Shown: positions 5,065 to 52,273 of the stretch, piece after piece
Numbering within the stretch: the stretch's first letter is position 1
Layout of the letters: the number at the start of each line of letters is the position of its first letter
DNA from: Smithellaceae bacterium
GTDB taxonomy: Bacteria; Desulfobacterota; Syntrophia; Syntrophales; Smithellaceae
Length of the DNA: 52,273 nt
Assembly: GCA_050008655.1 (NCBI GenBank)
Contig: JBEKMF010000002.1
Coordinates: 1 to 52,273 of the forward strand
Reading direction: 5' to 3'
Notes under the pieces: generated by a model
Seen by the model: only the letters and a program-made list of their open reading frames with translations
Told to the model about the DNA's origin: nothing
Databases searched by the model: none
Program-made: the position numbers and the translations under genes

Positions 5065-5485
5065 TCGAGCACCTCTATATTACCTGTTGGTTTGATCATG
5101 TTAAAAACTAACATTATTTAAGTGCTTTTTACAAGCCGAAGGATTTTGAAATATTTTTAAAGATCATGACTGATCAGAAACAAAGCCCCTCCTCGATTTT
5201 TTCGCGGCATCCCGTACCTTGGGAACGGCCATGTTTTCAAGACATTCACTGCGGCCGCTTCTGTGCATTTCCCATACGATTAAACATTTCTGCATTTGTG
5301 AAACTCCAATTTCCATAACGCAGTGCAGGGAAATTGGTAAGTTGAACAATCCCGCACAGCGGAGGGTATGATAGCAAGAAGCTTGTTGCGAAACTGATTT
5401 TCAAAGTTTGCCTTTGGTTTCATACCCGCGATTTTCTACCTAAAAAAAGCTTTTATTGAATAAAGAATACTTTTAGGGCGTCTGA

Positions 5486-9110: not shown

Positions 9111-9121
9111 AATTTAATTCC

Positions 9122-21884: not shown

Positions 21885-21917
21885 CCGACATCCTAAATAC
21901 ATAGGAATAATATATTC

Positions 21918-22886
21918 TCATAGATGCTTTCCCTCGAGCCAGCAACTCAAGTCTTTGCCTATATAGTCTTGCAGCTTCAGAATGTCGTCACGATAGAACT
22001 GTCTGAGTTGTTGTTCAATTTCATAGTCCATTAGCGGAGGCTCTTGCAGATTAACGGAACGAAGATGTTCGCGCAGGCGAATCCAGCGATCCGCACCCAA
22101 TATTGCTCCGCCGATGGTTCGGGCAATTTTGTGCAATCGCTTGGGCTTGACAAAAAGTTTATTCAGAGAAGCTGATCGGGGAATGCCGGAAATATTGTGC
22201 CTGTGGCGTATATTCGGAACAAAATCTGGGTTCACACCAAGAAACGCATAAAGGGTTCGTAGCAGAGAGGCTGCATCCCGCTCCAAGTCATCATAAAATA
22301 ATACCTTTACTCGGCTGAAATGTTCTTGAAAGGCGCGCACCCGACGAGCATACAATCCGCCTTCCTCATATTGCCATATACACAAGTATCCATCCTGTTT
22401 GCGTTGTTCCTCCGCGATCAAGGCATTCTTAAAGGACATTTTTTCGCGGCCCTCCCGTACCAGATAATTATAGGCGGAATAGGCGCGCTTTACCGGATCC
22501 CTCAGAATAATGACGATACACGGGTCACCAAGATAGTGTTGAATGGCCGGTATGGTCCGTTCGAACTGGAAGAATGTGTCGGTGCTGGCCTCACCCACTG
22601 CCTTCTTGCTGGCACTTCTTTCGAACAGTATGCAGTAATCATCAAATGACCGCATTGCTTTTGAAACGTCCAGCGCATCGCCGGGGCCAATGCCTTCCCT
22701 CAACGCGCTGCCGCTTAGAAATCCCGGCTCTTTTTTCGGACTCATATAGACTTCAGGATGTTGCTTCAGATAGTAATAAAGCGAGGTCGTTCCGCATTTG
22801 GCCGCACCTACGACCAGGAAATTCGGAAGCGCAGGCGCGGCATCGGCTCTTTCGTATAACAGGGGCATCATGTTTTTCTTACTCAA
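21918..22886 (-). CDS. PAPS-dependent sulfotransferase (paralog 2)
   Basis: GAAKCGTTSLYYYL and ILRDPVKRAYSAYN. Collinear with paralog 1 along the whole length, roughly two thirds of residues identical by eye. Confidence 0.85.
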   Translation of the reverse strand: MSKKNMMPLLYERADAAPALPNFLVVGAAKCGTTSLYYYLKQHPEVYMSPKKEPGFLSGSALREGIGPGDALDVSKAMRSFDDYCILFERSASKKAVGEASTDTFFQFERTIPAIQHYLGDPCIVIILRDPVKRAYSAYNYLVREGREKMSFKNALIAEEQRKQDGYLCIWQYEEGGLYARRVRAFQEHFSRVKVLFYDDLERDAASLLRTLYAFLGVNPDFVPNIRHRHNISGIPRSASLNKLFVKPKRLHKIARTIGGAILGADRWIRLREHLRSVNLQEPPLMDYEIEQQLRQFYRDDILKLQDYIGKDLSCWLEGKHL

Positions 22887-34172: not shown

Positions 34173-35210
34173 TCAGATGACAAGTTTGTTCATCGTTGAT
34201 GGATGAACCAGAGTGTCAACTTTCCTCTGTTTCATGCATTGTTTTATTGCCTGCTCAATATTCGCATGTGTTTTATAATATTCTTTTTCTAAAACCGAAC
34301 TGGCAGGCGCAGGACAGTCAGGAAGCGTTACTCTTTGTATAGGTGCTTTCAGATATTCAAAGGCCTGTTCTGAAACGATGGCTGATATTTCCGCCGCCAG
34401 GCCACATGTTTTCCAGCCGACATCAGCAACAGCTAAACGTCCCGTTTTCTTAACTGAAGCCAATATCAGACCGCAATCAATGGGCTTTGCCGTCCGAAGA
34501 TCAATACACTCCACATCAATGCCTTCTTTTGCCAAATTACCAGCCGCTTTTAATGTCTCGCGCACCATTAATGAAATTGCGACAACTGTTACATCGGCAC
34601 CTTTTTTTCGAATAATACCCTTACCGATTTCCACTTCATAAACATCTTCCGGAACAATATCTTCATCATTATATAAAAAGCGATCATCGATATAAACTAC
34701 GGGATTTGGATCGCGAATTGCTGCAATCATTAGCCCCTTGGCATCATAAGGCGTGGCCGGCATCACCACCTTTAATCCCGGAACATGTGCAAACATGGCA
34801 TGTAAAGCTTGGGCGTGCTGCGCCGCCTGCTCGCCACCGCGATTGATAATACCCCAAATAACCACCGGCACAGATAATTTGCCGCCGTTCATATAGTACC
34901 AGTTAGCCGCCTGATTGATGATCGGATCAAAAGCATAAAGCATAAAATCCATGCGTGGATGAACAATAATCGGCTTCATACCCGCAAGAGCTGCTCCGAC
35001 AGCCGCACCAGTCATCGCATTTTCAGAAACGGGCGTATCAATAACTCGTAATTTCCCGAACCTGTCTAACAAGCCCTGCGCGGTATTGCCGACATACCAT
35101 GGGCTTTTCGTCCCTTGCCCCATTAGAAAAACTGAAGCGTCGGCGGCCATCATTTGATGAAACGCCTCGTTAATCGCCAGACTGTAGCGAAGTTTTCTAG
35201 CGGAAGACAT
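34173..35210 (-). CDS. TPP-dependent 2-oxoacid dehydrogenase/transketolase-like E1 component, beta subunit
   Basis: Start taken at ATG 35210 (MSSARKLRYSLAINEAFHQMM), a 14-nt overlap with the alpha subunit; the track ORF begins at 35273. Typical E1-beta features: VIDTPVSENAMTGAAVGAALAGMKPI, and IDLRTAKPID in the C-terminal domain. Confidence 0.85.
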   Translation of the reverse strand: MSSARKLRYSLAINEAFHQMMAADASVFLMGQGTKSPWYVGNTAQGLLDRFGKLRVIDTPVSENAMTGAAVGAALAGMKPIIVHPRMDFMLYAFDPIINQAANWYYMNGGKLSVPVVIWGIINRGGEQAAQHAQALHAMFAHVPGLKVVMPATPYDAKGLMIAAIRDPNPVVYIDDRFLYNDEDIVPEDVYEVEIGKGIIRKKGADVTVVAISLMVRETLKAAGNLAKEGIDVECIDLRTAKPIDCGLILASVKKTGRLAVADVGWKTCGLAAEISAIVSEQAFEYLKAPIQRVTLPDCPAPASSVLEKEYYKTHANIEQAIKQCMKQRKVDTLVHPSTMNKLVI

Positions 35211-36201
35211 TATTGAGCAAATCCTTTCGATCCGGGTATGGACTACTTTTGGCAAAAACATGCGCGGCAGCAACTTCGGTATCCACGTCCATTCTTATTT
35301 TGCGCAAAGTTTCCGCATCAAAATCGTAATGATTGAGCAGGCATTTTTCATAAGTTTTAACCGGATCCTTTTCACGCCATCTCTCAACTTCTTCGGGAGG
35401 ACGAATGTCGGTGCGCAGACCTTGAACGTTATCGTCCGGCCCCACGTGCCCCCGTAATCGATAGGTCAGGCATTCCAGAAAAAAAGGGCCGTCGCCCCGC
35501 CTGCATTTTTCGATAGCCTCTCTACCTGCCTCATAGACCGCCAGAACATCATTGCCATCTACCTCAGCATTCTTGATGCAGAAGGGATCCGCAATCGTAC
35601 GGATATTATTTTGCACACGACAATCACGTATTGGCATATGAGTGGCGTAAAAATTATTTTCGCAAATAAAAATGATGGGAAGTTTCATCAGTGCCGCAAA
35701 ATTTAAGGACTCGTAAAGCACACCTTCACCTGCCGCACCATCGCCGAAAAAGACAACTGTTACACGATCATCTTTTCTGATGGCACTTGCCAATGCGGTG
35801 CCAAGACCCAGCGAAATTGTGCCAGAAACAATTGGCGCTGAGCCCAACATACCATGTTCAGGATCAATGAGATGCATTGACCCACCTCTACCATGGGAGC
35901 ATCCAGATTCGCGGCCATAAATTTCCGCAATCATCGCGCGCATAGAACCGCCTTTGGCTAAAAAATGACCATGTGCGCGATGATTACTGAAGATGTAATC
36001 CCTTACGTTCAGTGAAGCGCCAATGCCCGCAGCTATCGCCTCTTCACCGGAATAAAGATGACATGGACAGAGAATCTCACGATTTAAGATCGGTTCAACC
36101 AAGCTTTCTTCACAAACTCTCATGCGCAGCATGCTTCTGTATAATGCTTCTAATAAATGATTTTGATAATTCACTAGTTTAACCTGGCCACTATTTTTCA
36201 T
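35197..36201 (-). CDS. TPP-dependent E1 component, alpha subunit
   Basis: TPP-binding motif GDGAAGEGVLYESLNFAALMKLPIIFICENNFYA (GDG...NN). The track start at 36225 is a TTG; the ATG at 36201 (MKNSGQVKLV) is an alternative. Overlaps the AKR stop. Confidence 0.85.
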   Translation of the reverse strand: MKNSGQVKLVNYQNHLLEALYRSMLRMRVCEESLVEPILNREILCPCHLYSGEEAIAAGIGASLNVRDYIFSNHRAHGHFLAKGGSMRAMIAEIYGRESGCSHGRGGSMHLIDPEHGMLGSAPIVSGTISLGLGTALASAIRKDDRVTVVFFGDGAAGEGVLYESLNFAALMKLPIIFICENNFYATHMPIRDCRVQNNIRTIADPFCIKNAEVDGNDVLAVYEAGREAIEKCRRGDGPFFLECLTYRLRGHVGPDDNVQGLRTDIRPPEEVERWREKDPVKTYEKCLLNHYDFDAETLRKIRMDVDTEVAAAHVFAKSSPYPDRKDLLNNVFR

Positions 36202-37135
36202 TGATACAAGAATCGATAATTTCAAGTTCTTCGTCTGTCAAACGCCAACCATTTGCACCTAAATTTTCCATTACCTGCATATCTGTTTTCGCGCCAAAAA
36301 GGGTACATGTAATATCAGAATAATCCAGCACCCATCTCAGCGCAAGTTGACTTACTTGATGACCCCTGTTTGCAGCCATCTGCTCAAGAAATTTTACGCG
36401 CTTGATATACTTCAAAAAAATGTCCCCCGTAAATGCTTGCATCCTGCTTCGGTGATCATCATCTGCAAACTTTGTATTTGGGGTAAATTTGCCGGTTAAT
36501 AATCCATCAGCAAGTGCGCCCCAAGCAACTAAGTTAATACTATTATTCCCACAAATCGTCAATAATTCGTTAATTGAATCCCGATCAAAAATGTTTAACC
36601 GCACCTGAATTGCTGCTACCTCTGCGACCTGCATTGCCTGTAACAATTGATCAGCAGAAAAATTTGCAACGCCTATTACCCCTATTTTACCTTCTTCACG
36701 CATACGATCAAGTGCGGCAATGCTATCCTGTATGGGCGTTATATTGTCTGGCTTATGTATATAGTAGAGAGGAATACAATCCAACTTCAAACGCCTTAAA
36801 CTGTTTTCTACAGCCAGCTTGAGATAGGAAGGTGATGTATCTGCCCAAACCTTGCCTACTTCATTCCACCTCACGCCGCCTTTGCTGGCAATGACAACTT
36901 TTTTACGAGACGCATTCAATGTATCAGCAAGCAATGCTTCAGATTTGCCTAGCCCATAAACATCTGCAGTATCATAAAATGTAATGCCATTATCTAGCGC
37001 ACACCTGATAGCGTGAATAGAATCAGCATCGTTAACTTTACCCCAGCCATGACCGCCTATTGCCCAGCAGCCCATACCTAGACGACTGATTTCATATCCA
37101 GTTTGCCCCAGATGTATTGTCTCCAAGGCACTCAT
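36191..37135 (-). CDS. Aldo/keto reductase family oxidoreductase
   Basis: Start at ATG 37135 (MSALETIHLGQTGYEISRLGMGCWAIGG) gives an ATGA overlap with the upstream gene. AKR features: DTADVYG, and Lys in VIASKGG. Confidence 0.85.
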   Translation of the reverse strand: MSALETIHLGQTGYEISRLGMGCWAIGGHGWGKVNDADSIHAIRCALDNGITFYDTADVYGLGKSEALLADTLNASRKKVVIASKGGVRWNEVGKVWADTSPSYLKLAVENSLRRLKLDCIPLYYIHKPDNITPIQDSIAALDRMREEGKIGVIGVANFSADQLLQAMQVAEVAAIQVRLNIFDRDSINELLTICGNNSINLVAWGALADGLLTGKFTPNTKFADDDHRSRMQAFTGDIFLKYIKRVKFLEQMAANRGHQVSQLALRWVLDYSDITCTLFGAKTDMQVMENLGANGWRLTDEELEIIDSCINEK

Positions 37136-37788
37136 CGAATCGCGGTCCTCTTCACAACCCGGCAAAGGGTCATCCAGAGAATGTTGAAATCAGATCCAAG
37201 CGACCATTCCTTCACATATTTGACTCTTAATTCAGTCTTGCGGGGCATGATTTTTTCACGAAAATACCTGTCGGGATCTATGTTGCCTACAAGGTCGTCA
37301 AGATTGGCAAACTCAATAGATGCATAATCAGTTATTCCGGGGCGCATGGAAAGAATAATTTTTTCTTCATTCTTATAAGTAGCTATATATTCCAGTACCT
37401 CCGGACGTGGGCCAACGAGACTCATGTCGCCCACTAATACATTCAAGAGCTGAGGAAGTTCATCGAGTTTGGTCCGACGAAGTAAAACGCCAATACGCGT
37501 CACACGATTGTCGTTAGTGCCGGTAGTTGGCCCACCGAGAGATTCGGCATCCTCAACCATTGTTCTGAATTTGAAGATCCGAAAAGGTTTTCCGAATAAC
37601 CCCGCGCGCACACCGCGGTAGAAAACCTTTCCTGGTGATGTTAATTTTACGACTACTGCAATCAAGATAAGTAAGGGTGCTAGGACGAATAGACCGGTCA
37701 TTGCACCGACTACATCCACCGCTCGCTTCAACAATATATGGATCCACCTGCAGGGGAAAGCGATCGGTGTTTCAGGCGATGTTTCCAT
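37132..37788 (-). CDS. Small monotopic polyprenyl-phosphate phosphoglycosyl transferase (PglC/WbaP C-terminal-domain family; pathway initiator)
   Basis: 218 aa. KRAVDVVGAMTGLFVLAPLLILIAVVVKLTSPG, FRIFKFRTM, DELPQLLNVLVGDMSLVGPRP. TAATG overlap with the upstream methyltransferase. Confidence 0.9.
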   Translation of the reverse strand: METSPETPIAFPCRWIHILLKRAVDVVGAMTGLFVLAPLLILIAVVVKLTSPGKVFYRGVRAGLFGKPFRIFKFRTMVEDAESLGGPTTGTNDNRVTRIGVLLRRTKLDELPQLLNVLVGDMSLVGPRPEVLEYIATYKNEEKIILSMRPGITDYASIEFANLDDLVGNIDPDRYFREKIMPRKTELRVKYVKEWSLGSDFNILWMTLCRVVKRTAIR

Positions 37789-40130: not shown

Positions 40131-41660
40131 TTAGTTTCTGTCTGCCAGTTTGATTTTCAATAATTGCCCCCAAAGCCAGTCCCGCGTTACCGGTGTGATA
40201 ATGGCTGTTATTCCTAGCGTTAATACAGAAATTATCGACAAATAAATCAGCAACGTAAATTGCGCCATTGAGGAACTGATAAATAATTTCCCGGAAGAGG
40301 CAATAACTAAAGCCACAGCAAGCGGGATCAATACATCCTGCCAATACCAGCGCCATTTTTCTTTATTTAGCAAGCGGCGATGCATTAATGGAACTTCAAA
40401 AAGCACATAACCTACGTTTAAAATTAGCCAGACACTTGCCGCCCCGGTGGCACCATAGTTGGCTGTCATGTAAACTATCGACGTAACAAACAGCACAACG
40501 GCCACCAAATTACTAAAAAAAAATAATCTGGTCCAGCCAAATGACAATTGCAGCGCATGGGGAAGATACATAAGGGCATTAAGGGCAGTCCCGCAAATGA
40601 GAATGCTCACAAGCAAGTGCGATTTCTCAGCTGTTATCGGATTTTGTGTCCAGAGTAAAATGATTTCATAAGAATACAGGGCAACAACAATGGAAGCAGG
40701 TAAAATCAAAACAGCCATAAACTGGCAGCCTTTATGATAAAGCTGTTTTAACCCTTCCTGTGCGTTGAGAGAAACCAATTGGGTGAATCGGGGATAAATA
40801 CTGGCGAACAGCGACACGCTCACACGCAATGGGCTCAAGGCAATTATACTGGCCAGCGCGTAATAACCAAACATCTCCAAAGATAGCATTTTGCTTAATA
40901 TGATTTTATCCACTTGAGTAAGAATTATTCCGAGGATAGTGGTGCCGCCAATCCCGGCGGCAAACCGGCCGATACCTTTCAGCAGCTGCTTTTGAAAAAC
41001 AGGCCTGTTTTCACTTTTCGGCAGCTTACGCCAAAAAAAAGTCACTAAAAGAAATGTATGTGTTGCGCTGATAATAATCTGCCATAAAAAAAATGCCTGA
41101 ATCGTGGGAGAAATCAGCCATAAAACCGCAACAGCGCCAACGCCGCGTAAAGTACTTATACTAATATTAACCGCATTTAATATAATCTGGCGTTGGAGCC
41201 CGGTAAGCCCGCCTGCGTAGAAACTAATTGGCCATTGCAGCATCAATGTAAATCCCATTATTAAAACTGCTTGTTCAATAGTTGAGGATGATAATTGCTC
41301 TGCCCTGACCCAATGATGAGCAATAAAAGGCGATGCTGTTATGACCACAATTCCGATAACCAATGCTATACACCAGTAAATAATTTCCAGCGAACGGACC
41401 AGATTGCGTATTTCCTGTTCCTTTTCCGGCAGCACAGAAAGCCGCGCCATTTCACGGTTCAATGTACCGCTGAACCCCATATCGAGAAGTCCGGTCATCA
41501 CTTGGAGCATGGCAAAAAAACCTATTAGCCCATAGGATTCTATCCCCAGAAATTTTATATAAAGGGGTACGAACACGAGTCCCATGAGGGCCATCCAAGC
41601 ATTTCCTAATAAAGTTGCGCTAATATTTTGCTTGAGCAAGTTCATACGGCCCGTATTCAA
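40131..41660 (-). CDS. MOP-superfamily oligosaccharide/polysaccharide flippase (Wzx-like), second copy
   Basis: 509 aa, about 14 TM segments. LLKQNISATLLGNAWMALMGLVFVPLYIKFLGIESYG is typical of Polysacc_synt flippases. Confidence 0.8.
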   Translation of the reverse strand: MNTGRMNLLKQNISATLLGNAWMALMGLVFVPLYIKFLGIESYGLIGFFAMLQVMTGLLDMGFSGTLNREMARLSVLPEKEQEIRNLVRSLEIIYWCIALVIGIVVITASPFIAHHWVRAEQLSSSTIEQAVLIMGFTLMLQWPISFYAGGLTGLQRQIILNAVNISISTLRGVGAVAVLWLISPTIQAFFLWQIIISATHTFLLVTFFWRKLPKSENRPVFQKQLLKGIGRFAAGIGGTTILGIILTQVDKIILSKMLSLEMFGYYALASIIALSPLRVSVSLFASIYPRFTQLVSLNAQEGLKQLYHKGCQFMAVLILPASIVVALYSYEIILLWTQNPITAEKSHLLVSILICGTALNALMYLPHALQLSFGWTRLFFFSNLVAVVLFVTSIVYMTANYGATGAASVWLILNVGYVLFEVPLMHRRLLNKEKWRWYWQDVLIPLAVALVIASSGKLFISSSMAQFTLLIYLSIISVLTLGITAIITPVTRDWLWGQLLKIKLADRN

Positions 41661-43777: not shown

Positions 43778-44428
43778 TCATGTGCGAGTACACACCGTTA
43801 AGCAGTGTGTATACGGAATCCATGATCGATGACGAATTTCGACATGAGGCTCTGGAAATACTTTGGAGAGCAATGCAGTATAGCCTTCGCGTGTGCGGAC
43901 TTTTTGCCCGCGGTCCCATGAGATAAGATGCCGGGCTATCGGATTTTGCTTTGGTGCAAAACACGGATCCACTGTAATCAGTCGGCCACACGGTTTCAGG
44001 GCATTATGTGCAAGCTCAAGTAATGAGGCGGCGTTTGCATCGTCAAGGTGGTGGAGCACGCCAATGGCCAAAGTGATATCAAACTTCGGCAGAGATTCCA
44101 AGTCTTCTGAGGTCAGCTCCTTGCAGAAAAAATGTCCCGCAGTACGATTTTTTTGGGCCCATCTGATATAAGCAGGGTTGATGTCAAAGCCCCAATAACT
44201 CACCCTAGGAAGATATGCTAATATTTCTGCCGGGCCACACCCGATGTCCAAAATTTGGGCACCTGATTGCGGGCGCACAAAGTCCGATACAAAAGCAGTA
44301 TTCCATTTACGATCCTCAAAAATACCGCCCACAAAGAAAATCTGCGAGAAAATATAAATAAAGGGATTGTCTAGCAAAGATCTAATGCCGGTTGTAATTT
44401 GTCCCAAGGATGTCCTCTCTTTGCGCAC
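43778..44428 (-). CDS. Class I SAM-dependent methyltransferase
   Basis: 216 aa, GTG start. ILDIGCGPAEILAYL (motif I), ITLAIGVLHHLDD, LKPCGRLI. Confidence 0.8.
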   Translation of the reverse strand: MRKERTSLGQITTGIRSLLDNPFIYIFSQIFFVGGIFEDRKWNTAFVSDFVRPQSGAQILDIGCGPAEILAYLPRVSYWGFDINPAYIRWAQKNRTAGHFFCKELTSEDLESLPKFDITLAIGVLHHLDDANAASLLELAHNALKPCGRLITVDPCFAPKQNPIARHLISWDRGQKVRTREGYTALLSKVFPEPHVEIRHRSWIPYTHCLTVCTRT

Positions 44429-44712
44429 TTTTCTTATTTAGACGCGCATTACAATGTATTTGCACGACCTTTATAAGAAAATTGCCGCCATCTCCAGGAC
44501 CGCCGCTTCGATAGGAAAACCATATCTTGTAACCTGCTTCTATATTTCCCATAACAGTGGGTCTGGAAAATGCTTGGCCTCTTCCAGGTTTGCAAGTAAC
44601 AGCCAAACCTTCACGATTCCAGTTATGTCCATCTCCGACGAAGCGTAGTTTATAACAGGCATCTCTCCGTTACCGGCATTCCAAGCTGTCGTTGAGCCAT
44701 ACCACATGCTGT

Positions 44713-47034
44713 TTACAGTGCTTTTTTATCACGATACCAAACACTTAATTTACCATCTTTTTCAACGATAGCGGAGTCTGGAAGTTTCCAGAAAGGATTC
44801 CATTTTAAGCGATCTTCCAAGGAGTAGTCAGAACGAATCAACACCCTATCTTTATCCCTCCTGATAATTAAATTTCCATTTAGTGCTATTTTCCCAATAT
44901 CGGTCATTAAAGTAACCTTGGGTTTAATTCTGCCCGATATTATTCCCGAATTTAAAATACTATCAGCGAGTTCAATCGTCTCATCCAACGAAGTACGAAG
45001 CCAATCAATTCCGCCAATAGGCACACAATGAAAAAGATAGTGGTTTTCGATATTCAGCGATCGAAGAGAGTCGTATAAATTTATTAAATCCATAACGGAA
45101 TCATTAATACCTTTTAACAAAACGGTTTGGTTATAAATTGTAGAAACGCAGGAACCTATTCTCTGGTATGCTTCGCGTACCTCGGGAAATAATTCTAAAG
45201 AATGATTTATCTGAGTTGCCATTTCTACACGAAAAGAATATTTCTTTTTTAAAACAGAAAGAATATTATCATTTACCCAATCCGGCTGATGAACAGGCAG
45301 GCGACTGGCTATTCTAACTACTTCTATGAAAGGTGAATGGCTGTTTAATTCATCAAGTAAATGCGATAGCTTTTTGGGCACTAGGAATGGGTCACCACCT
45401 GTAATTAATATTTCTCTAACATCGCTGGCTAATTCCGATTGTCCTAAAAATCTGGCTATTCTGCTTAAATCATCATTTGTCAAAATAAAAGGTTCATAAT
45501 TTCTTCGCAAACAATGTCTACAGTGAGCAACGCACATTAAGGTAATATCAACCAAAATTTGTCTTTTATATAAGCGTTCAACACCAAATAATTTTTTATC
45601 TTCAAAAACAAATTCTGCAGAAGCATCATAGTGTTTCGTTGCTTCATTTTCAGATATTTCTGTTTCATTCTTATTAAATATAAATTGCGTTGTAAGAACT
45701 TTAAGAATGTCTTCTCTGTTTTCGGTTCTGGCTTTATTAATCTGTTTTTGTAAAAAGGGCGATATTCTTTCATTATATCGCTTGTACTTTTCCCTTTTGA
45801 CCGAAGTATTACCGGTATCATTTTTTGGAAGAACATATATATGAATATAATCCTCAACATGATGCCACTTTTCTTGCATTTCTTTGTGACTATCAAACTC
45901 TAAGAACACCACACCTAAGGCATAATCACCTCTGGTAAATGGTTTTACTTCAGTCTCAAATTCAACAAAATTGATACTTTTCATAATATTGTTTACAATT
46001 TCCAGAGAATAATGAATTCCTGTATACTGCCCCTCTTCCGACGCGTTTAAAATATAAGTCATAACCGATTTAGGATTTGCTACATGCAATTGTTGAACAG
46101 GGTATTCGATACCTAAAGCACAATAAACTGCGGCTTCTGTCAAATCTACTCCAGTTGACATTTTAATTAAATCAGGAACGTAATTACCTCCATTGCGTAG
46201 CCCAATATCCAAAATAACAACTTTTCCGTTTACAAACAAAGCATCAAAATTCATACAACCAGTAACTAAATTAAAAGTTGTAATAATCTTTTGTAATTGA
46301 TCATCCAATTGGCCTATAACTTCTTTTCCAAAAAAACCGGGCATAATTTCGCCAATAGGTACTTTCAATTTACTGCCTTTTAAAAAATAATTGTGTCCAT
46401 AATGTCCAAATGCGAGTTTACCGTTTTGTATCAAAATATCCCCATCAAGTTCAAGCATATCGCTCTTTAATAATTCTTCACAAACCACCACACCACACCG
46501 ACTGTATTTTTTTGCATCGACGATTGCTCTTTGTATTTGAAGTGAAGACGAAACAATTGTCTGACCTTTTGAACCACTGGAATCTGAAGCTTTTACCAAA
46601 ATTGGATAATTTAAATCTATTTCTTTAAATTTATCATCAGACTCAATAATAACGAAGTTGGGATAAGGAAGACCAACTTGTTTTTGAAACTTTCGAAACT
46701 CATGCTTTAGTTGGAGAATTTTAGCTGAATTATACGGATTACCGGGCAAATTTAATTTTTCTGCAATATATGAAACGCCCGGCGACGAAACATCTGATCC
46801 ATAGGTCATAACTCCATCTATGTTATATTTCTTTGCAACTTCTATAAGACTGTCTAAGTCGGTTGTAGAAACATTTTCACTAAAGTCCCCAACAAAGTGC
46901 CCAATATTCGAAGGCACATTATCTGTAACAATTACCTGAACATCCAATTGTTGTGCCGTTTTAATAGCGGGTAATTGAAACTGTGTTGCCCCCAAAAACA
47001 ATATTTTTTTGGTATTAAATAAATTATTGCACAT
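44713..47034 (-). CDS. Fusion protein: N-terminal ATP-grasp ligase domain + C-terminal KamA-family (2,3-aminomutase-like) radical SAM domain
   Basis: 773 aa in a single uninterrupted frame. N-terminal half: KKILFLGATQFQLPAIKTAQQL, YPILVKASDSSGSKG, VVCEELL, ILDIGLRNGG (ATP-grasp layout). C-terminal half: LMCVAHCRHCLRRN (CX3CX2C followed by RR, as in lysine 2,3-aminomutase relatives), ILITGGDPF, NQTVLLKGIND, HYLFHC, and a Lys in TDIGKIAL where KamA enzymes have the PLP lysine. Confidence 0.85.
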   Translation of the reverse strand: MCNNLFNTKKILFLGATQFQLPAIKTAQQLDVQVIVTDNVPSNIGHFVGDFSENVSTTDLDSLIEVAKKYNIDGVMTYGSDVSSPGVSYIAEKLNLPGNPYNSAKILQLKHEFRKFQKQVGLPYPNFVIIESDDKFKEIDLNYPILVKASDSSGSKGQTIVSSSLQIQRAIVDAKKYSRCGVVVCEELLKSDMLELDGDILIQNGKLAFGHYGHNYFLKGSKLKVPIGEIMPGFFGKEVIGQLDDQLQKIITTFNLVTGCMNFDALFVNGKVVILDIGLRNGGNYVPDLIKMSTGVDLTEAAVYCALGIEYPVQQLHVANPKSVMTYILNASEEGQYTGIHYSLEIVNNIMKSINFVEFETEVKPFTRGDYALGVVFLEFDSHKEMQEKWHHVEDYIHIYVLPKNDTGNTSVKREKYKRYNERISPFLQKQINKARTENREDILKVLTTQFIFNKNETEISENEATKHYDASAEFVFEDKKLFGVERLYKRQILVDITLMCVAHCRHCLRRNYEPFILTNDDLSRIARFLGQSELASDVREILITGGDPFLVPKKLSHLLDELNSHSPFIEVVRIASRLPVHQPDWVNDNILSVLKKKYSFRVEMATQINHSLELFPEVREAYQRIGSCVSTIYNQTVLLKGINDSVMDLINLYDSLRSLNIENHYLFHCVPIGGIDWLRTSLDETIELADSILNSGIISGRIKPKVTLMTDIGKIALNGNLIIRRDKDRVLIRSDYSLEDRLKWNPFWKLPDSAIVEKDGKLSVWYRDKKAL

Positions 47035-47056
47035 AACCTAGGCTTTAAAAACCATG

Positions 47057-48004
47057 TTATAGAATATTTTTCTTATTTTTAATTATATAATTGGGACGAG
47101 ATTTAGATTCTTCAAAAATCTTCCCTATATATATTCCTGAAATACCTATGGTAATCATTAATAATCCACAAACTAACCAGATTGAAACTACAATACTTGT
47201 CCAACCTTCAATAGTAAAAAGGTTAATAATTCGTGCAATAACAAGAAACAGACCGAACAAAAAAGAAAATAAAGCGATTAAAAAACCAAATTTTATTGAT
47301 AAATGTAGGGGTCTATTTGTGTTGGAAATGATATTATTAAAAGCTAAAGCTAGCAATTTCTTTAAATTGTATGAAGACTCACCAGCAAATCTTTTATCAT
47401 GTTTAACATCAACTGTTGCTTGACTAAATCCAAGCCATTTAATAAAAAAAGTATAATCTCTGTTTTTCTCTTTAAGTAGTCGGTATGCTACAACTACTTT
47501 TTTATTAATAATGCTAAAATTTGCGATTGCATTATCATGATTATGTCCTGTTAGAAAATTGAATATTTTACTGAAAAAATAAGATGTTTTAACTTTAAAA
47601 TATGAATCATGCCGGCTAATCCGTCTGGCTATAACTACATCAAACCCTTCTTTGGCTTTATTATACAACTTAATTATATCCTCGGGTTGATCTTGTAAAT
47701 CGCAATCCATAACTACCGTCCATTCTCCTTGCGCGCAATCTAATCCAGCACCTATAGCATTATGCTGTCCAAAATTGCGTGACAAATCTATTCCTTTAAC
47801 TCTATAGTCTTTCTCTCCAAGCTCATTTATCACATCCCAGGCGCCATCAGGGCTGGCATCGTTTACCAGAATTATTTCGAAATCAGCAGTTATTTTTTCA
47901 AGCGTTTCCTTTAAGCGGAAATATAATTCGTAAAGGCAGGTTCTACAACCATAAACAGGAGAAACTACTGACAGTATTGGGGAAACCTTTGCACAATTAA
48001 TCAT
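47057..48004 (-). CDS. Polyprenyl-phosphate sugar synthase-type GT2 (GtrB/ArnC-like)
   Basis: ILSVVSPVYGCRTCLYELYFRL, IILVNDASPDGAW, DCDLQD. Two C-terminal TM helices. The track start at 48037 is a TTG; the ATG at 48004 (MINCAKVSP) is preferred. Confidence 0.85.
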   Translation of the reverse strand: MINCAKVSPILSVVSPVYGCRTCLYELYFRLKETLEKITADFEIILVNDASPDGAWDVINELGEKDYRVKGIDLSRNFGQHNAIGAGLDCAQGEWTVVMDCDLQDQPEDIIKLYNKAKEGFDVVIARRISRHDSYFKVKTSYFFSKIFNFLTGHNHDNAIANFSIINKKVVVAYRLLKEKNRDYTFFIKWLGFSQATVDVKHDKRFAGESSYNLKKLLALAFNNIISNTNRPLHLSIKFGFLIALFSFLFGLFLVIARIINLFTIEGWTSIVVSIWLVCGLLMITIGISGIYIGKIFEESKSRPNYIIKNKKNIL

Positions 48005-48129
48005 GTTTGCCAATATTTCTAAATGTTCCCATATCAAAAAAAATATAGTTATTCAGGGCTAGCATATTGATATAATAGCATATATACACTGACTTGTGGA
48101 TGTTTTTTGCTAACTTTTCCCTAAGTTCT

Positions 48130-49266
48130 TCAATTTTTTCCGTCACCCAAGATTTTTTTATAAAGAGTTATCAATTTTTCGCCTTCAGATTTCCAATTGT
48201 ATTTTTGCCTGACCATCAGATTTCCATTCTCGCCCATTATTCTTGCCTTTTCCGGATTTTCAATCAACCAGTTAATGGATCCAGTTATTTCATCTACTTT
48301 GTCCGGGGATACGTTGAGTCCAGACTTACATTCCTCAATAAGTTCAACCCATGTAGGGAAATTAGAAGCAATTATAGGTATGCCATAACGCATATAATCA
48401 AATAGTTTGGTTAAGTCTTTCCTTGTATAGTGCTCGGTCTCTGGAAATACAGCTAATCCGGCCAGCCATTTATTGGTTTGAACTATTAAATCCATTTCCT
48501 CTTTTGGAACATATCTATTTTCCCCTATAATGACCAGCCTTTCTCGATTAATCCCAAGTTCATCAATTTTTGCTAAGAGGTAATTGTACGTATGCACGTT
48601 ACACCGTCCAATCATGCAAAGCCCGATTTCGGAATTGTGCTTCAACATTCGGACATGGTTAAAGGCGCCTCGCGCAGATGAAATAACACCTGTATATAAA
48701 CACCAATGATGGTCTTTTTTAAGACAAATCGTGGAGGATGACAAATATGAATTTCTTTCTTTCAAAATAGGATAATTAAGAACAGTAACTCCATCAGGAA
48801 ACCGTTCTGCATAATATTTCTCAGCAATTATTTTCCAACAACAAATCGCAAAAATATGCTCCAGTGCACCCAATAAAGCCGCTAAAGGCAGACGAACATA
48901 AGGCGGTAAATAATCTTTCTGTTTAATCGATGTTATGTAGTTTTCGTGAATATCATAAATGACACGCTTGCCGAAAATTCGCCAAAATGGGGCTAATGGC
49001 AAGAGTTCGAGATCATGAATATGAATTATTTTTGCGCCGGAGCGTAATGATAAAATAAAGGCCTTAGGTACGCCTATCAAAATGCGTCCGATGCGTGATC
49101 TGTGCTTACCAATGATATGATAGCATAATCTGTTATCTGCATGCTTGGGCAGCTGGCTGCAAACAACATGAACTCTGTAATTTTCATTAAGAAGCGTTAT
49201 GCATTCTCTTTCGAAAATTCTCGGATCATCAGAAGAGTGAACAGTTGTCACGTGAGCTATTCTCAT
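48130..49266 (-). CDS. Family 4 (GT-B) glycosyltransferase
   Basis: The track start at 49329 is a TTG. The ATG at 49266 gives MRIAHVTTVHSSDDPRIFERE, a typical GT4 N-terminus. C-terminal half has TEHYTRKDLTKLFDYMRYGIPIIASN. Confidence 0.8.
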   Translation of the reverse strand: MRIAHVTTVHSSDDPRIFERECITLLNENYRVHVVCSQLPKHADNRLCYHIIGKHRSRIGRILIGVPKAFILSLRSGAKIIHIHDLELLPLAPFWRIFGKRVIYDIHENYITSIKQKDYLPPYVRLPLAALLGALEHIFAICCWKIIAEKYYAERFPDGVTVLNYPILKERNSYLSSSTICLKKDHHWCLYTGVISSARGAFNHVRMLKHNSEIGLCMIGRCNVHTYNYLLAKIDELGINRERLVIIGENRYVPKEEMDLIVQTNKWLAGLAVFPETEHYTRKDLTKLFDYMRYGIPIIASNFPTWVELIEECKSGLNVSPDKVDEITGSINWLIENPEKARIMGENGNLMVRQKYNWKSEGEKLITLYKKILGDGKN

Positions 49267-49369
49267 AGAGACAACTCTTTTAATATAACATATTTGTTGT
49301 GGAGAATCATTGACTGACCTATTTGACAAACGGCTTCTTTTATTACACCACCGGATTAAAATTAGTTCA

Positions 49370-50512
49370 TTAATCAGATAAGGTTAGGCTATAGTTATTG
49401 AGTCTCACAGCTTCATAAAGCCTTGCGGATAAGATAGCAGGATCCATAGTGTTTTTAGATAACATGTTTTTTTCGCAATCATAATAGAACTCAAATTGTT
49501 TACTTAAAAATATAGATATATGATTTTCGGCAGATTCTAATTTCAGATATTCTTTAAAAACTTGCAGAGCGTAAGCCATTTCAATTCCTGTAGGGTTATA
49601 GCACCACCTATAACCTGCTTTCTCTCCCCAGCCAAAAGGAAAACCATTGATTATAAAATCAACCGTATTAGAAATGATTTCTTTTAACTTATTGTCACTC
49701 CAGAAAATTTGTTCACTGCTGTACTCGTATGCCAGCGCAAGTCCGTATAAAATAAAACTTAAATATCCCTCGGACAATATCTTTTGTTTATCGTAGTATG
49801 TACTGTTCTTATATGTTCTACCAACTAACCGTTTTGCTATTCTGCGAAAAGACCACGCATTACTATTAAATTCGTGCTTGATTAGGCCTCTTTCTTCAAA
49901 CGAACTGACTAATAAAGGCAAATTAATAAAAAAATCTACCGCCAAATCATTTAATTTTTGATCGCATAAAAATTTACCTATTATTAAATTGAGAGTGGCA
50001 AACCACACTTGTTGATTTAAAGTATGATTTATTCCTAATATTTTCCCGTTTATTTCTGTATTATTCCACACATGTTGTTTATGATCATACCGATGTAACA
50101 AGACAATTTTTTTAGCAACATCCCAATATTCAGGTTTGTTTAAGAGATTACCAATAAATACAAGTGGCTCTATTGCCCATGCCTGACCAATCAGACCATT
50201 ACACATATTTTTCCCTGTTTCATTGGTCCGGCATTTAAAAGTGTATCCGTAAGGGCGCTGCTCTTTTCTTATGATATATTCACATGCTTTAATAGCTGAA
50301 GATAAAAATCTTTCCTCTCCGGTAATTTCATATGCTTTGAAGTTAATTAAAACCCAATGGGCAGTAGTCCTGACATTAGTGTCTACATCGCCCCACGGCC
50401 CGTTATGCCCGCATGGATATTCCCCTGCGGCTTTTTGAATTTTTAAACCTTCACGTGCGCTTCTTGCGATTAAATCATATAACTCAACTTCCAAAATTAC
50501 ACCTCTACACAT
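49370..50512 (-). CDS. Hypothetical protein, probably (alpha/alpha)6-toroid fold (GH88/GH105/epimerase-like); function unknown
   Basis: 380 aa. GHNGPWGDVDTNVRTTAHWVLINF and CNGLIGQAWAIEPL (the GQAWAI motif resembles the RGQAWA motif of six-hairpin glycosidase-like enzymes). Helix-rich by eye. Functional call is weak. Confidence 0.5.
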   Translation of the reverse strand: MCRGVILEVELYDLIARSAREGLKIQKAAGEYPCGHNGPWGDVDTNVRTTAHWVLINFKAYEITGEERFLSSAIKACEYIIRKEQRPYGYTFKCRTNETGKNMCNGLIGQAWAIEPLVFIGNLLNKPEYWDVAKKIVLLHRYDHKQHVWNNTEINGKILGINHTLNQQVWFATLNLIIGKFLCDQKLNDLAVDFFINLPLLVSSFEERGLIKHEFNSNAWSFRRIAKRLVGRTYKNSTYYDKQKILSEGYLSFILYGLALAYEYSSEQIFWSDNKLKEIISNTVDFIINGFPFGWGEKAGYRWCYNPTGIEMAYALQVFKEYLKLESAENHISIFLSKQFEFYYDCEKNMLSKNTMDPAILSARLYEAVRLNNYSLTLSD

Positions 50513-50524
50513 TGAATAGCCGAT

Positions 50525-52174
50525 CTATAAAGCTTCCAATTCTTCATGCATTAGTTTGCTAATGATATAAAAAGCGTTTGCGTAACCGGTCGCGGTTTTT
50601 ATAAAAGGCAACCCCGTGATGCCTGATGCTAAATTTTTAGAAGCTATTCCTCCATATCCTTTGCCATTTTCTGAATTCATGTTTCTTTCACACCAGGCAA
50701 TTGCCTTTTTCGAACAATAAATAAATTTATTATTATTGGTTAATTTGTATAATTCTATAAACAGATAGCTTAATAGAGCAGTAGCTTTTTCACATTTGCC
50801 ACTATATTTTTTTACACTTGTCAGCGGATAAACGTACCCTAACAGATACGGCCATGAACCATCAATTTCTTGCTCCAATATTAGCAACTCACCAAGGCTT
50901 GTTGCGGCATTCAAATAATTATGATTCTTTGTTTCTTTGTAGGAAGCAATCAAACCCTCAAGGACCCATCCATGACCGCGAGTAAACAGTTTATGGGAAA
51001 TACCATTTTTAAAAGAATAATATTGGCCATAAAACCCGTTTTTCAATTGGAATTGTTTTAAAAACCTGCGCATGAAAAAATTTATAGCATTACTATAAAC
51101 TACATTTTTTTTGTCTATAATGATTCTATTATATTCTGCCAAACCTTCTGTAGTAAAACCTGTATCAATGAAACAACCATCTTCTCTCTTACCCTTTTCA
51201 TGGTAAAAATGTGAAGGTACAAACTCATTTTCATAAATTGCCTTTACTACCCAATCAAGTGCAATTTTCGACGCATTTAGATATTCAATAAGGCCGGTAT
51301 GCTTATAAAGAGATAACAATGCCCACTTTACCGCAAACGAAGTGTCATTTACGCCCAGCAGACAATCAAACGAATTATCTGCACTGCCTAAATACCGGTA
51401 TCTGGAAACTAAGGCACCGTAGTTGCTATCCTTCTTATCTAGTATCTGGTTTCTTAGTAATGTATCGCCGATCTTTGATGCCAATGAGATATAAAAATGT
51501 TTGTTGATACTATCTTTCTCCGATAGTTTAAGCAATGCATACACTATTGGGGCATCACTCCATAGCCAATATGACATCCTAAAACATTGATTATCATAAT
51601 CATAAATGGCGTAGCATGAATTCTTGAAAGGTGAGTGTAAGGGATATTCGACTAATGAATTATTGATATATTGCACAGCTGCTTGCAAATAATTATCACC
51701 AATATGAATCAATAAAACATTGTTATTGGAGATATCTGATTCGTTAGAATGCATTAATTTACAAAAGCTTAAATATTTTATTTTTATTTTTCCTTTATAA
51801 GCCAAGACATTTTCGCCTTGTTCCAGTGCAGTAATAGGCACTTCGATTTTATTTTTCCCTTTTTTCAAATAATAATGTTTCCTATTTAAATATTCATTTA
51901 TAATAATGATTGCTTCTTTACTTTGGACAACTATCTCCAGTATAACTTTTGAAGTGCCAGTATATTGTTGATCGGTCAGCCTAAAGTGTTGATATCGATA
52001 ATTCGATAATTGAAGCATATTTTTTTTGTCGAAGCGAGTTTTGATGTTCGAGATATTGAACAAATATTTTTTAACCATCATTTTGGAAATAAGCAAAAAT
52101 GATCCAACATTGAAATATTTTATATTTATTAATTTTACAGCACTATATTTTATCTTAATCAAGTCAGTCTCCAT
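50525..52174 (-). CDS. Hypothetical protein with C-terminal (alpha/alpha)6-toroid-like domain; function unknown
   Basis: 549 aa. N-terminal ~170 aa Lys/Ile-rich domain, then WLWSDAPIVYALLKL, FTRGHGWVLEGLIASY (RG.GW motif), DGSWPYLLGY. Functional call is weak. Confidence 0.5.
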   Translation of the reverse strand: METDLIKIKYSAVKLINIKYFNVGSFLLISKMMVKKYLFNISNIKTRFDKKNMLQLSNYRYQHFRLTDQQYTGTSKVILEIVVQSKEAIIIINEYLNRKHYYLKKGKNKIEVPITALEQGENVLAYKGKIKIKYLSFCKLMHSNESDISNNNVLLIHIGDNYLQAAVQYINNSLVEYPLHSPFKNSCYAIYDYDNQCFRMSYWLWSDAPIVYALLKLSEKDSINKHFYISLASKIGDTLLRNQILDKKDSNYGALVSRYRYLGSADNSFDCLLGVNDTSFAVKWALLSLYKHTGLIEYLNASKIALDWVVKAIYENEFVPSHFYHEKGKREDGCFIDTGFTTEGLAEYNRIIIDKKNVVYSNAINFFMRRFLKQFQLKNGFYGQYYSFKNGISHKLFTRGHGWVLEGLIASYKETKNHNYLNAATSLGELLILEQEIDGSWPYLLGYVYPLTSVKKYSGKCEKATALLSYLFIELYKLTNNNKFIYCSKKAIAWCERNMNSENGKGYGGIASKNLASGITGLPFIKTATGYANAFYIISKLMHEELEAL

Positions 52175-52189
52175 ACGTTTAGAATAAAT

Positions 52190-52273
52190 TCATAACAGAT
52201 GTGATGCATAATTTTTAAAATCAGCGATTAAATTACGGCAGTTTTCTTTGTCTAAACTGTATAATAAAGTGGC
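52190..52273 (-). CDS. 3' end of a further upstream minus-strand gene (only the last 27 codons are in the window)
   Basis: Frame is open from the right edge to the TGA at 52192-52190 (ATLLYSLDKENCRNLIADFKNYASHLL), 15 nt before the next ATG. This is consistent with the operon-like packing, but too short to identify. Confidence 0.3.
   Translation of the reverse strand, partial: ATLLYSLDKENCRNLIADFKNYASHLL

Follow-up and report, generated by a model that had tools for sequence, protein, structure and literature searches.

Enzymes of the KamA family combine a radical S-adenosylmethionine (SAM) domain with pyridoxal 5'-phosphate (PLP), and to our knowledge the family today comprises only lysine, glutamate and arginine aminomutases. 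In beta-lysylation of elongation factor P (EF-P) by EpmB/EpmA and in N-epsilon-acetyl-beta-lysine formation by AblA/AblB, a KamA-family aminomutase is followed by a dedicated conjugating partner, a LysRS paralogue and a GNAT, respectively. The same logic is seen in an open reading frame (ORF) at positions 44713 to 47034 of contig JBEKMF010000002.1 from a Smithellaceae bacterium (assembly GCA_050008655.1), where the partner is a covalently joined ATP-grasp ligase. The stretch analyzed, called the window here, is positions 1 to 52,273 of this contig; the 52-kb window SPECIFICALLY is a large surface-glycan region, wholly on the minus strand. EpmB and AblA act on lysine, keep both aspartates of the lysine pocket and serve a target that is a protein or the amino acid itself, whereas the fusion has a non-lysine pocket and lies in a sugar-biosynthesis context. 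We put at slightly better than even the proposal that the fusion is a bifunctional glycan-tailoring enzyme, which would make a non-basic beta-amino acid and then amide-link it to an amino sugar. Two domains, their catalytic residues and their genomic associations were observed directly; the chemistry is inferred throughout. Literature searches agreed with the first-pass annotation, made from the sequence alone, that no characterized pathway has this architecture: they returned no description of an ATP-grasp/aminomutase fusion and none that places a KamA-type enzyme in a nonulosonic-acid or polysaccharide locus.

The fusion gene was translated from 44713..47034 as a single frame of 773 codons from ATG to TAA. 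That annotation had described a 773-aa ORF free of stops and frame breaks, and all motifs quoted in it were present in the translation. DNA around the gene is only 33-38% G+C, and a 2.3-kb open frame in such DNA is far beyond chance. The segments and residues referred to below are as follows (PDB and NCBIfam comparisons are described in later paragraphs).

44713..47034, minus strand, complete fusion ORF, 773 codons, ATG to TAA
45826..47034, minus strand, ATP-grasp ligase domain of the PurT / L-amino-acid-ligase type, residues 1-403
45778..45825, minus strand, linker, residues 404-419, the sole internal segment with a predicted local distance difference test score (pLDDT) <50
44716..45777, minus strand, KamA-type radical SAM/PLP domain, residues 420-773, from NCBIfam, PDB and fold matches
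45511..45534, minus strand, CVAHCRHC, the CxxxCxxC [4Fe-4S]/SAM motif (C501/C505/C508), aligned to C125/C129/C132 of lysine 2,3-aminomutase (LAM)
45505-45507, minus strand, R510, aligned to LAM R134
45391..45402, minus strand, TGGD, residues 545-548, the SAM-binding GGD/E motif, invariant
45022..45024, minus strand, Val671 at the LAM Asp293 position, Val/Ile throughout the clade and Asp in the EpmB-type outgroup
44902..44907, minus strand, Met710-Thr711 at or near LAM Asp330, Met/Leu plus Thr/Ser throughout the clade and Asp in the EpmB-type outgroup
44890..44892, minus strand, Lys715 in TDIGK, aligned to the LAM PLP lysine K337, invariant

An AlphaFold2 model of the whole 773-aa protein had a mean pLDDT of 87.4 and a predicted template modeling score (pTM) of 0.85, and pLDDT fell below 50 only at residues 1-3 and 406-419. 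The linker between the ATP-grasp and radical SAM domains is, in this model, short and disordered, and the pTM value suggests a defined interface between the two domains. Homologues were searched for among 5.8 billion proteins, and ~48 full-length matches (755-835 aa, 43-95% identity, 97-100% coverage) were recovered from independent NCBI, ENA, JGI and Logan assemblies. They span at least eight phyla. Metagenome-assembled genomes (species-representative genomes) that carry the fusion belong to Deltaproteobacteria (95% identity, hence probably near the source of the window), Melioribacter, Planctomycetales, Pontiellaceae, Saganbacteria, Spirochaetia, Verrucomicrobia and Nitrospiraceae. Where the homologues were labeled, the labels were 'hypothetical protein', 'lysine 2,3-aminomutase', 'ATP-grasp domain-containing protein' or '4Fe-4S cluster-binding domain-containing protein', the second of these being automatic. 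Two full-length fusion clusters were left after 50% clustering (1.84 billion representatives), so the fusion is a narrow family. Both halves are under purifying selection in an alignment of 34 fusion proteins. That the ORF arose by misassembly or frameshift, or is a decaying pseudogene, has a probability close to nil and was excluded: the architecture recurs in the ~48 homologues from independent assemblies and sources, which rules out an assembly artefact, catalytic residues are invariant in both halves, and the full-length model is confident (pLDDT 87.4, pTM 0.85). The fusion is a real, conserved protein.

The C-terminal domain was assigned by sequence and by fold. All six NCBIfam KamA-family models matched residues ~415-735 (E 1e-33 to 3e-37), and phmmer against the PDB returned Clostridium subterminale LAM (2A5H; E 1.8e-28). 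The isolated domain (residues 405-773) was modeled with AlphaFold2 at pLDDT 87.8 and pTM 0.88, and its top PDB fold match was again 2A5H (E 3.7e-20, TMq 0.64, 336 columns); other radical SAM folds (viperin-like, LipA) gave E 4e-6 or worse, ~14 orders weaker. The AblA, glutamate aminomutase, arginine aminomutase and EpmB equivalog models all scored far under their cutoffs (for glutamate 2,3-aminomutase, TIGR04368, 122.7 bits against a cutoff of 650), and the domain is for this reason a divergent relative outside the curated equivalogs. Membership in the KamA family, as first annotated, was upheld by the six models and the 2A5H fold and is qualified by scores below the curated cutoffs. LAM and the radical SAM half share the fold, the CxxxCxxC motif, the alpha-carboxylate arginine, the GGD motif, the NQ and ND motifs and the PLP lysine, at 24% identity; they differ in Asp293 (Val in the fusion), Asp330 (Met) and Cys268 (Ser), and in context, which is lysine fermentation or osmolyte synthesis for LAM and an ATP-grasp-joined protein in a glycan locus here. 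C501, C505, C508, R510, G546-G547-D548, N635-Q636, N644 and K715 were invariant in the 34 fusion proteins, and the cluster cysteines and K715 were invariant across all clade loci too. The PLP lysine previously placed in TDIGK is borne out by the alignment of K715 with K337, as is the retention of the cluster cysteines.

The substrate pocket sets this domain apart from LAM. Residue numbers in the 2A5H alignment agreed with the published landmarks of LAM (C125/C129/C132, R134, D293, D330 and K337). In LAM we take R134 to be the alpha-carboxylate ligand, K337 the PLP lysine, and D293 and D330 the ligands of the lysine epsilon-ammonium group; in glutamate 2,3-aminomutase, Lys and Asn presumably stand in place of the two Asp residues. 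The fusion has Val and Met at the two epsilon-amine positions, not the Lys and Asn of the glutamate enzyme. An alignment of the radical SAM domain took in 78 loci. Two motifs, HYFH[CAGP][VI]P and [LAVM][ML][TS]D[IV]GK, were shared by every sequence at least 39% identical to the window protein, as were a Lys at position 704 and, nearby, Asp712, both specific to the clade; the sequences at ~30% identity that lie beside EF-P-sized genes (EpmB type; L070-L076) kept Asp at both positions. Because both epsilon-amine positions are hydrophobic, the substrate is almost certainly not lysine, and by its sequence the domain belongs to a distinct non-lysine clade. The beta-lysine, beta-glutamate and beta-arginine products first cited for KamA relatives are to be read accordingly: lysine is very unlikely in view of Val671 and Met710, and scores lay below the KamA cutoffs. 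Sequence points most simply to a free alpha-amino acid whose side chain is likely neutral or non-basic; of the candidates weighed, which were alanine, leucine/methionine, phenylalanine and glutamate, none was assignable from sequence. The C268 position of LAM, which we take to be a Zn ligand, is Ser646, and the protein ends ~38 residues past the aligned core with no Cys there; the C-terminal Cys-rich domain of clostridial LAM, presumably used for oligomerization, is lacking from the fusion.

The N-terminal half was assigned to the ATP-grasp superfamily, as had been proposed, by sequence and fold matches to 4DIM, 3VOT and PurT, in keeping with a fold of pre-ATP-grasp, central and C-terminal subdomains, and has no place in any characterized subfamily. 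Pfam Dala_Dala_lig_C scored 25.9 bits (cutoff 24), PF02222 ATP-grasp scored 23.1 bits (cutoff 27), and several other ATP-grasp Pfam models fell just under threshold; NCBIfam matches were to PurT, PurK and carbamoyl phosphate synthetase (CPSase)-type models. With phmmer, PDB matches were the uncharacterized 4DIM protein (E 6.5e-19, residues 3-391) and the L-amino acid ligase BL00235 (3VOT; E 2e-9). Fold matches of the AlphaFold2 model were 4DIM, 3VOT, PurT, RizA and BacD at target TM 0.71-0.82, the first four at 0.77-0.82 over ~400 columns. The L-amino acid ligases (3VOT, RizA 4WD3, BacD/YwfE 3VMM/3WNZ), PurT and 4DIM align with this half over its full length, at 16-19% identity in structural alignment, and the hallmark Lys, Glu, Asn/Asp and R-x-G-G of the group are invariant in the fusion. 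K148, E186, E195-D199, N262-F263-D264 and R280-x-G282-G283 did not vary among the 34 fusion proteins; by analogy, K148, E186, E195-D199, N262/D264 and R280-x-G282-G283 are taken as the nucleotide- and Mg-binding residues of the superfamily (a Lys of the B-loop region, acidic and Asn ligands of Mg, and R-x-G-G), the specific role of each being assigned on the same basis. L-amino acid ligases and PurT yield dipeptides or formyl-glycinamide ribonucleotide (formyl-GAR), whereas the grasp clade of the fusion resides in polysaccharide loci and is joined to Wzx, GNAT, methyltransferase or sulfotransferase domains. Relatives of the grasp half that stand alone (hundreds of clusters, 30-43% identity) are found in such loci next to DegT and PglF-type dehydratases, and in some of the relatives the fused partner is a Wzx flippase, a GNAT, a methyltransferase (P0129) or a sulfotransferase.

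Four proteins of ~770-820 aa (P0076, P0079, P0163, P0189) were considered as fusions of reversed order, radical SAM before grasp, and were rejected; Pfam identified them as tandem double ATP-grasp proteins with L-amino-acid-ligase C-terminal domains, which suggests two successive ligations in some polysaccharide loci. The reversed order was found as adjacent genes (L009, L010).

Most members of the radical SAM clade are stand-alone proteins of ~360-420 aa that begin where the linker of the fusion ends; cultured strains with such a homologue include Dongia deserti (L033), Calditrichales MX18-03 (L035) and Streptomyces gobitricini (L014). ORFs were called crudely in all loci, neighbors were clustered, and recurrent families were then identified. 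These were an LpxD-like hexapeptide N-acyltransferase (Pfam; PDB LpxD E 1e-35), a PaaK-like adenylating enzyme (PDB phenylacetate-CoA ligase E 7e-51), a DegT aminotransferase, a NeuB-family synthase, a PseB/LegB-type dehydratase, a cytidine monophosphate (CMP)-sugar cytidylyltransferase, an AMP-binding enzyme and a PIG-L deacetylase, and also a NeuC-type 2-epimerase, a WbqC-like protein, a B12-binding radical SAM protein and an AAC(3)-like N-acyltransferase. The commonest cassette is PaaK-like, LpxD-like, radical SAM, often then NeuB. A carboxylate-activating enzyme (counted as this ATP-grasp, a PGM1-type grasp, a PaaK-like CoA ligase or an AMP-binding enzyme) lies ≤2 genes away in 39 of the 67 clade loci and in none of the 13 outgroup loci, often accompanied by an LpxD-like or AAC(3)-like amino-sugar N-acyltransferase. 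DegT, NeuB, PseB or CMP-transferase genes occur within ≤6 kb at 29/67 clade loci (outgroup, 0/13). A survey for the two domains as fused or adjacent genes had been proposed; it showed that enzymes which activate carboxylates or N-acylate amino sugars recur as partners of the clade and have been fused to it independently. P0073 (651 aa) joins the same radical SAM clade, independently, to an LpxD-like hexapeptide N-acyltransferase. P0048 (999 aa; L083, 9001-12000) is a triple fusion of formyltransferase, ATP-grasp and radical SAM domains, its extra domain matching Met-tRNA formyltransferase and the formyltransferase domain of ArnA.

Several fusion genes are set in compact nonulosonic-acid operons of the Pse type. 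The L083 operon reads PseB, DegT, TIM-barrel protein, triple fusion, NeuB, CMP-transferase, and no PseH-type acetyltransferase gene was found within it. L085 contains PseB, DegT, further genes, CMP-transferase, GNAT, PseG, fusion, NeuB and CMP-transferase. The fusion is immediately upstream of NeuB in L007, L008, L011, L083 and L085, and placement in nonulosonic-acid operons was recorded for these five and for ~25 stand-alone cassettes. A cassette of Pelagibacteraceae and related alphaproteobacteria consists of the radical SAM gene, an AAC(3)-like N-acyltransferase, an AMP-binding enzyme and DUF4910; in Pelagibacteraceae AG-343-E17 (L050, 9974-15000) the last is DUF4910/DUF2172. Both the SAR11 member and one of Nitrosopumilus (L026, ~8.8-11.1 kb) lie inside nonulosonic-acid clusters.

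Other members were seen in different company. In Streptomyces lushanensis, S. gobitricini and S. dioscori (L013, L014, L036; ~9.3-13.6 kb), a stand-alone radical SAM gene precedes a PGM1-type ATP-grasp peptide ligase and a major facilitator superfamily (MFS) transporter, and the set looks like an uncharacterized cassette for a beta-amino-acid peptide natural product. Very long Streptomyces ORFs without Pfam matches (L012, L043) were disregarded as probable wrong-frame ORFs in high-GC DNA. B12-binding radical SAM proteins (~500 aa) and WbqC-like proteins recur in nonulosonic-acid clusters (L021, L023, L030, L045, L049, L054, L067; also L010, L011, L019, L063), and PhyH-type dioxygenases occur in L026, L029, L040 and L048; all three hint at further tailoring of the acyl group, e.g., C-methylation or hydroxylation.

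The genes around the fusion gene in the window are listed here.

48130-49329, minus strand, family 4 glycosyltransferase (GT4), beyond the GT2 gene and co-directional
47057..48037, minus strand, family 2 glycosyltransferase (GT2) with two C-terminal transmembrane (TM) helices, PgfS/ArnC/GtrB polyprenyl-phosphate type, 22 bp upstream of the fusion gene
43778..44428, minus strand, class I SAM methyltransferase, 216 aa, the next gene downstream, kept with the fusion in L001-L003
41792..43675, minus strand, 627-aa polytopic membrane protein, ~11 TM segments and a C-terminal soluble domain
40131..41660, minus strand, Wzx-type flippase (Polysacc_synt), in the same co-directional cassette

The flanking GT2 and GT4 genes reported earlier were confirmed at these positions. 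The best models for the GT2 were PgfS (197.8 bits) and ArnC (168.8 bits), both below cutoff; ArnC is the undecaprenyl phosphate (Und-P) 4-deoxy-4-formamido-L-arabinose transferase. GT2 homologues adjoin the radical SAM/grasp pair in L003, L009, L010 and L037, the last of which also has PseB-like, DegT and acetyltransferase genes. GT2, fusion, methyltransferase, 627-aa membrane protein and Wzx are kept together at 92-96% identity in L001-L003. The 627-aa membrane protein had no Pfam, NCBIfam or PDB sequence match and is, on topology only, a candidate GT-C-type transferase for an Und-P-linked sugar.

We propose the following route. The C-terminal KamA-type domain, with [4Fe-4S], SAM and PLP, would take a free L-amino acid and shift its alpha-amino group to C3; that the alpha-carboxylate of the substrate is free is implied by the conserved Arg510, and the hydrophobic distal pocket (Val671, Met710) makes a neutral or non-basic side chain likely. 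The N-terminal ATP-grasp domain would then phosphorylate the carboxylate of the beta-amino acid and hand the acyl group to a sugar amine, most likely that of a 4-amino- or 2-amino-6-deoxyhexose or a nonulosonic-acid precursor, to give an N-(beta-aminoacyl) sugar. The module logic would be to make an unusual acid, activate its carboxylate and place it on a sugar amine. One fusion would do the work of three proteins in the sister loci (stand-alone radical SAM, PaaK-like acyl-CoA ligase and LpxD-like uridine diphosphate (UDP)-amino-sugar N-acyltransferase), replacing the thioester route by direct acyl-phosphate ligation physically coupled to the aminomutase. In this window, the ArnC/PgfS-like GT2 may load the modified sugar onto Und-P, and after flipping the 627-aa membrane protein may add it as a side decoration of a (sulfated) polysaccharide. 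These loading, flipping and transfer steps are modeled on the ArnC/ArnT and GtrB/GtrC systems, and transfer by the 627-aa protein is the weakest link because that protein has no detectable family. The free beta-amine may be capped by the neighboring methyltransferase and, in P0048, by the formyltransferase domain; that domain, the adjacent methyltransferase and the grasp/methyltransferase fusion P0129 are consistent with such capping. In blasticidin S biosynthesis, the beta-amine of sugar-linked beta-arginine is acylated before the methyltransferase acts (PMC5572114).

A wider proposal, which we hold tentatively and at somewhat under even chances, is that the clade as a whole constitutes an unrecognized substrate class of 2,3-aminomutases (neutral or hydrophobic, not Lys, Glu or Arg) whose product is the acyl donor for an undescribed family of cell-surface nonulosonic acids and amino sugars with N-(beta-aminoacyl) groups. 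Uncultured bacteria and archaea, Pelagibacteraceae (SAR11) and Nitrosopumilus among them, would carry these widely. Such glycans would have escaped notice in studies that use mass spectrometry (MS) only, since the alpha and beta forms of an aminoacyl group are isobaric.

Several findings weigh against synthesis and ligation of a beta-amino acid to an amino sugar by the fusion. The KamA model TIGR00238 scored 113.6 bits against a cutoff of 199.2, and with scores below every curated cutoff the aminomutase chemistry is an extrapolation. The nearest structural relatives of the grasp domain produce dipeptides or GAR derivatives, not sugar amides. No recognized activating enzyme was near 28/67 clade loci, some contigs being short and gene calling crude, and the Hydrogenedentota homologue L084 lies outside any glycan context. 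No NeuB, CMP-transferase or DegT aminotransferase gene was found in the window, so a locally made sugar amine is not evident; tblastn of the window with representatives of the neighbor families found only the PglF-like dehydratase, and the nonulosonic-acid context of the homologues is therefore not simply transferable here. Literature searches found no glycan with a beta-aminoacyl nonulosonic acid, and we know of no report of one. For every family member, both the aminomutase and the ligase roles are predicted ones. The earlier suggestion of on-site synthesis and sugar ligation of a beta-amino acid is, as a predicted function, strongly backed by the comparative genomics of nonulosonic-acid and 4-amino-6-deoxyhexose pathways, and is weakened at the local acceptor, for which aminotransferase, NeuB and uronate genes are lacking.

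Three other assignments of chemistry were weighed. The ATP-grasp domain may work with reverse polarity, activating the carboxylate of a sugar, either a uronic acid or a nonulosonic acid (at C1), for attack by the amine of the beta-amino acid, which would give a uronamide-type amide. In principle ATP-grasp enzymes are able to activate the carboxylate of either partner, and the fusion gene sits in a polysaccharide locus; amino-acid-amidated galacturonic and glucuronic acid residues occur in O-antigens and capsules, and an ATP-grasp amidoligase of the Campylobacter jejuni capsule (the C-terminal domain of Cj1438) is understood to amidate glucuronate. Yet no UDP-sugar 6-dehydrogenase was present in the window or among the recurrent neighbor families, the recurrent sugar genes are dehydratase/aminotransferase pairs, which create sugar amines, and the CoA ligase and LpxD-/AAC(3)-like N-acyltransferases of the sister cassettes work in the opposite direction, the small acid being activated and the sugar amine acylated. 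Since the clade comes with no uronate pathway and its sister cassettes have the opposite polarity, the uronamide reading is disfavored, and we regard it as improbable. The two example chemistries given in the first-pass annotation part ways on the same polarity, which favors acylation of an amino sugar and disfavors amidation of a uronic acid. A small soluble product is given an equally minor chance: the fusion would release a beta-amino-acid dipeptide, either attached to the glycan by another enzyme or unrelated to it (an osmolyte, signal or antibiotic). BL00235, RizA and BacD, the best structural relatives of the grasp domain, do form dipeptides, the Streptomyces members paired with a PGM1-type peptide ligase and an MFS exporter have the look of small-peptide natural-product genes, and L084 is outside glycan loci; the large majority of fused forms, however, lie inside glycan or nonulosonic-acid operons (22 bp from a GT2 gene here, operon-internal in L083 and L085), and free dipeptides are hard to square with a grasp clade that has members joined to Wzx flippases, sulfotransferases and GNATs.

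The order of the two reactions may also be reversed, the ATP-grasp domain tethering an alpha-amino acid to the sugar (e.g., via its side-chain carboxylate, which would leave the alpha-amine and alpha-carboxylate free) and the radical SAM/PLP domain then isomerizing or otherwise modifying the tethered residue. Hydrophobic replacement of the two Asp residues would then mark an opening for a bulky sugar substituent and not a side-chain pocket. In favor of this order are the clade-wide replacement of the residues that close over the lysine epsilon-amine in LAM, the clade-specific Lys704 and Asp712 near the pocket, and the methyltransferase that adjoins the fusion gene, and there is a parallel in Clostridium botulinum flagellin, where legionaminic acid is N-acylated via the side-chain carboxyl of N-methylglutamate. 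Covalent fusion and confident domain packing (pTM 0.85) suit a hand-over in either direction. Stand-alone clade members, on the other hand, are found next to CoA ligases, enzymes that naturally act on free acids, and in Streptomyces they accompany peptide ligases where no sugar genes were detected, a setting that suggests a free amino acid as substrate; all KamA-family enzymes known to us act on free amino acids. Tethering before isomerization is unlikely on this evidence. Isomerization of a free amino acid followed by ligation to an amino sugar is the order retained here.

The rest of the window encodes 3'-phosphoadenosine 5'-phosphosulfate (PAPS) synthesis (CysN/C, CysD), a sulfate-type ABC importer, a Wzm/Wzt exporter, two Wzx flippases, GT2, GT4 and GT9 glycosyltransferases, two sulfotransferases, a radical SAM/SPASM protein, PMT_2 and DUF2142 membrane proteins, a PglF-type dehydratase, E1 alpha and beta, an aldo-keto reductase, a PglC-type initiating transferase and a TylF-type methyltransferase. 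No UDP-sugar dehydrogenase was found in the 52 kb. Full PAPS supply (a CysN/CysC fusion and CysD), the sulfate-type ABC importer, two sulfotransferases and Wzm/Wzt with Wzt_C occupy 1817-11835 and 20940-22886, and this combination of PAPS supply, sulfotransferases and exporter predicts a sulfated polysaccharide. The gene for a 373-aa radical SAM/SPASM protein (19822-20943, minus strand) has a GT4 gene on one side and a tandem pair of sulfotransferase genes (20940-22886) on the other. Among NCBIfam models the protein came closest to maturases of metalloenzymes or peptides, in each case far under the cutoff. This second radical SAM enzyme of the region is unrelated to the fusion and could be a modifier of the glycan or sulfatase type. 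At 34173-37165 (minus strand), thiamine pyrophosphate (TPP)-dependent E1 alpha and beta and an aldo-keto reductase stand between the PglF-type 4,6-dehydratase and the PglC-type initiating transferase; the set has no aminotransferase, its arrangement is kept in the 95% relative L001, and it may carry out two-carbon branching or other keto-sugar chemistry on a UDP-4-keto-6-deoxy-N-acetylhexosamine (HexNAc).

The last 8 kb of the window (44001-52273), which holds the fusion gene, has a G+C of 0.33-0.38 against 0.40-0.51 elsewhere, and gene content upstream of the GT2 differs from that of L001/L003, the 95%-identical relative. The G+C drop and the gene content suggest a recombination-prone, variable glycan segment. 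At 49370-52174 (minus strand) are two soluble proteins of 380 and 549 aa without a Pfam or NCBIfam family, both absent from L001; the only match of the 549-aa protein was pectate-lyase-like and sub-threshold. Between the fusion and methyltransferase genes is an apparently non-coding gap of 284 bp (44429-44712). An Rfam scan of the window returned no family, no convincing terminator was found in the gap, and counts from a promoter/terminator scan equaled the shuffled expectation. In relative L002, a called ORF of 120 aa overlaps the fusion gene at its end.

If the proposed function is true, the small KamA aminomutase family would gain a new substrate specificity, and sialic-acid-like sugars and amino sugars a new route to diversify their N-acyl groups, which determine serotype, phage and immune recognition, and flagellar function. 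The three interchangeable couplings (fused ATP-grasp; CoA ligase with LpxD-like; AMP-binding with AAC(3)-like) would offer a natural experiment in how modular such pathways are, as well as a toolkit of enzymes for making beta-aminoacyl sugars. The presence of the clade in the abundant marine lineages SAR11 and Nitrosopumilus would, again if true, point to ecologically relevant surface chemistry so far unknown. An annotation signature is already at hand in HYFH[CAG][VI]P and [ML][TS]D[IV]GK, and the Streptomyces cassette, being present in culturable strains, would be a convenient route to the substrate of the clade.

The product type proposed for the fusion has its nearest counterparts in actinomycete secondary metabolites. 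Blasticidin S, in which beta-arginine made by the arginine 2,3-aminomutase BlsG is amide-linked to a 4'-amino sugar nucleoside, represents that product type, and streptothricin (beta-lysine on gulosamine) has a beta-amino acid amide-linked to a sugar amine as proposed here. The late acylation and methyltransferase steps of blasticidin S have their parallels in the P0048 formyltransferase domain and in the methyltransferase gene next to the fusion gene. Both compounds use basic amino acids, and nothing comparable has been described for cell-surface glycans or nonulosonic acids. In pathway position, the fusion would correspond to PseH-, PglD- and LpxD-type enzymes, which act after the aminotransferase and before NeuB to N-acylate the 4-amino (or 2-amino) group, and in L083 the fusion gene holds a PseH-like operon position. 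Those enzymes use a preformed acyl-CoA or acyl-ACP (acyl carrier protein), usually acetyl, whereas the fusion would make its own, unusual acyl donor and couple it in an ATP-dependent reaction with no thioester. Known already are both domain families and the logic of a mutase followed by conjugation; new are the substrate pocket, the covalent partnership with an ATP-grasp domain, and the nonulosonic-acid and amino-sugar context.

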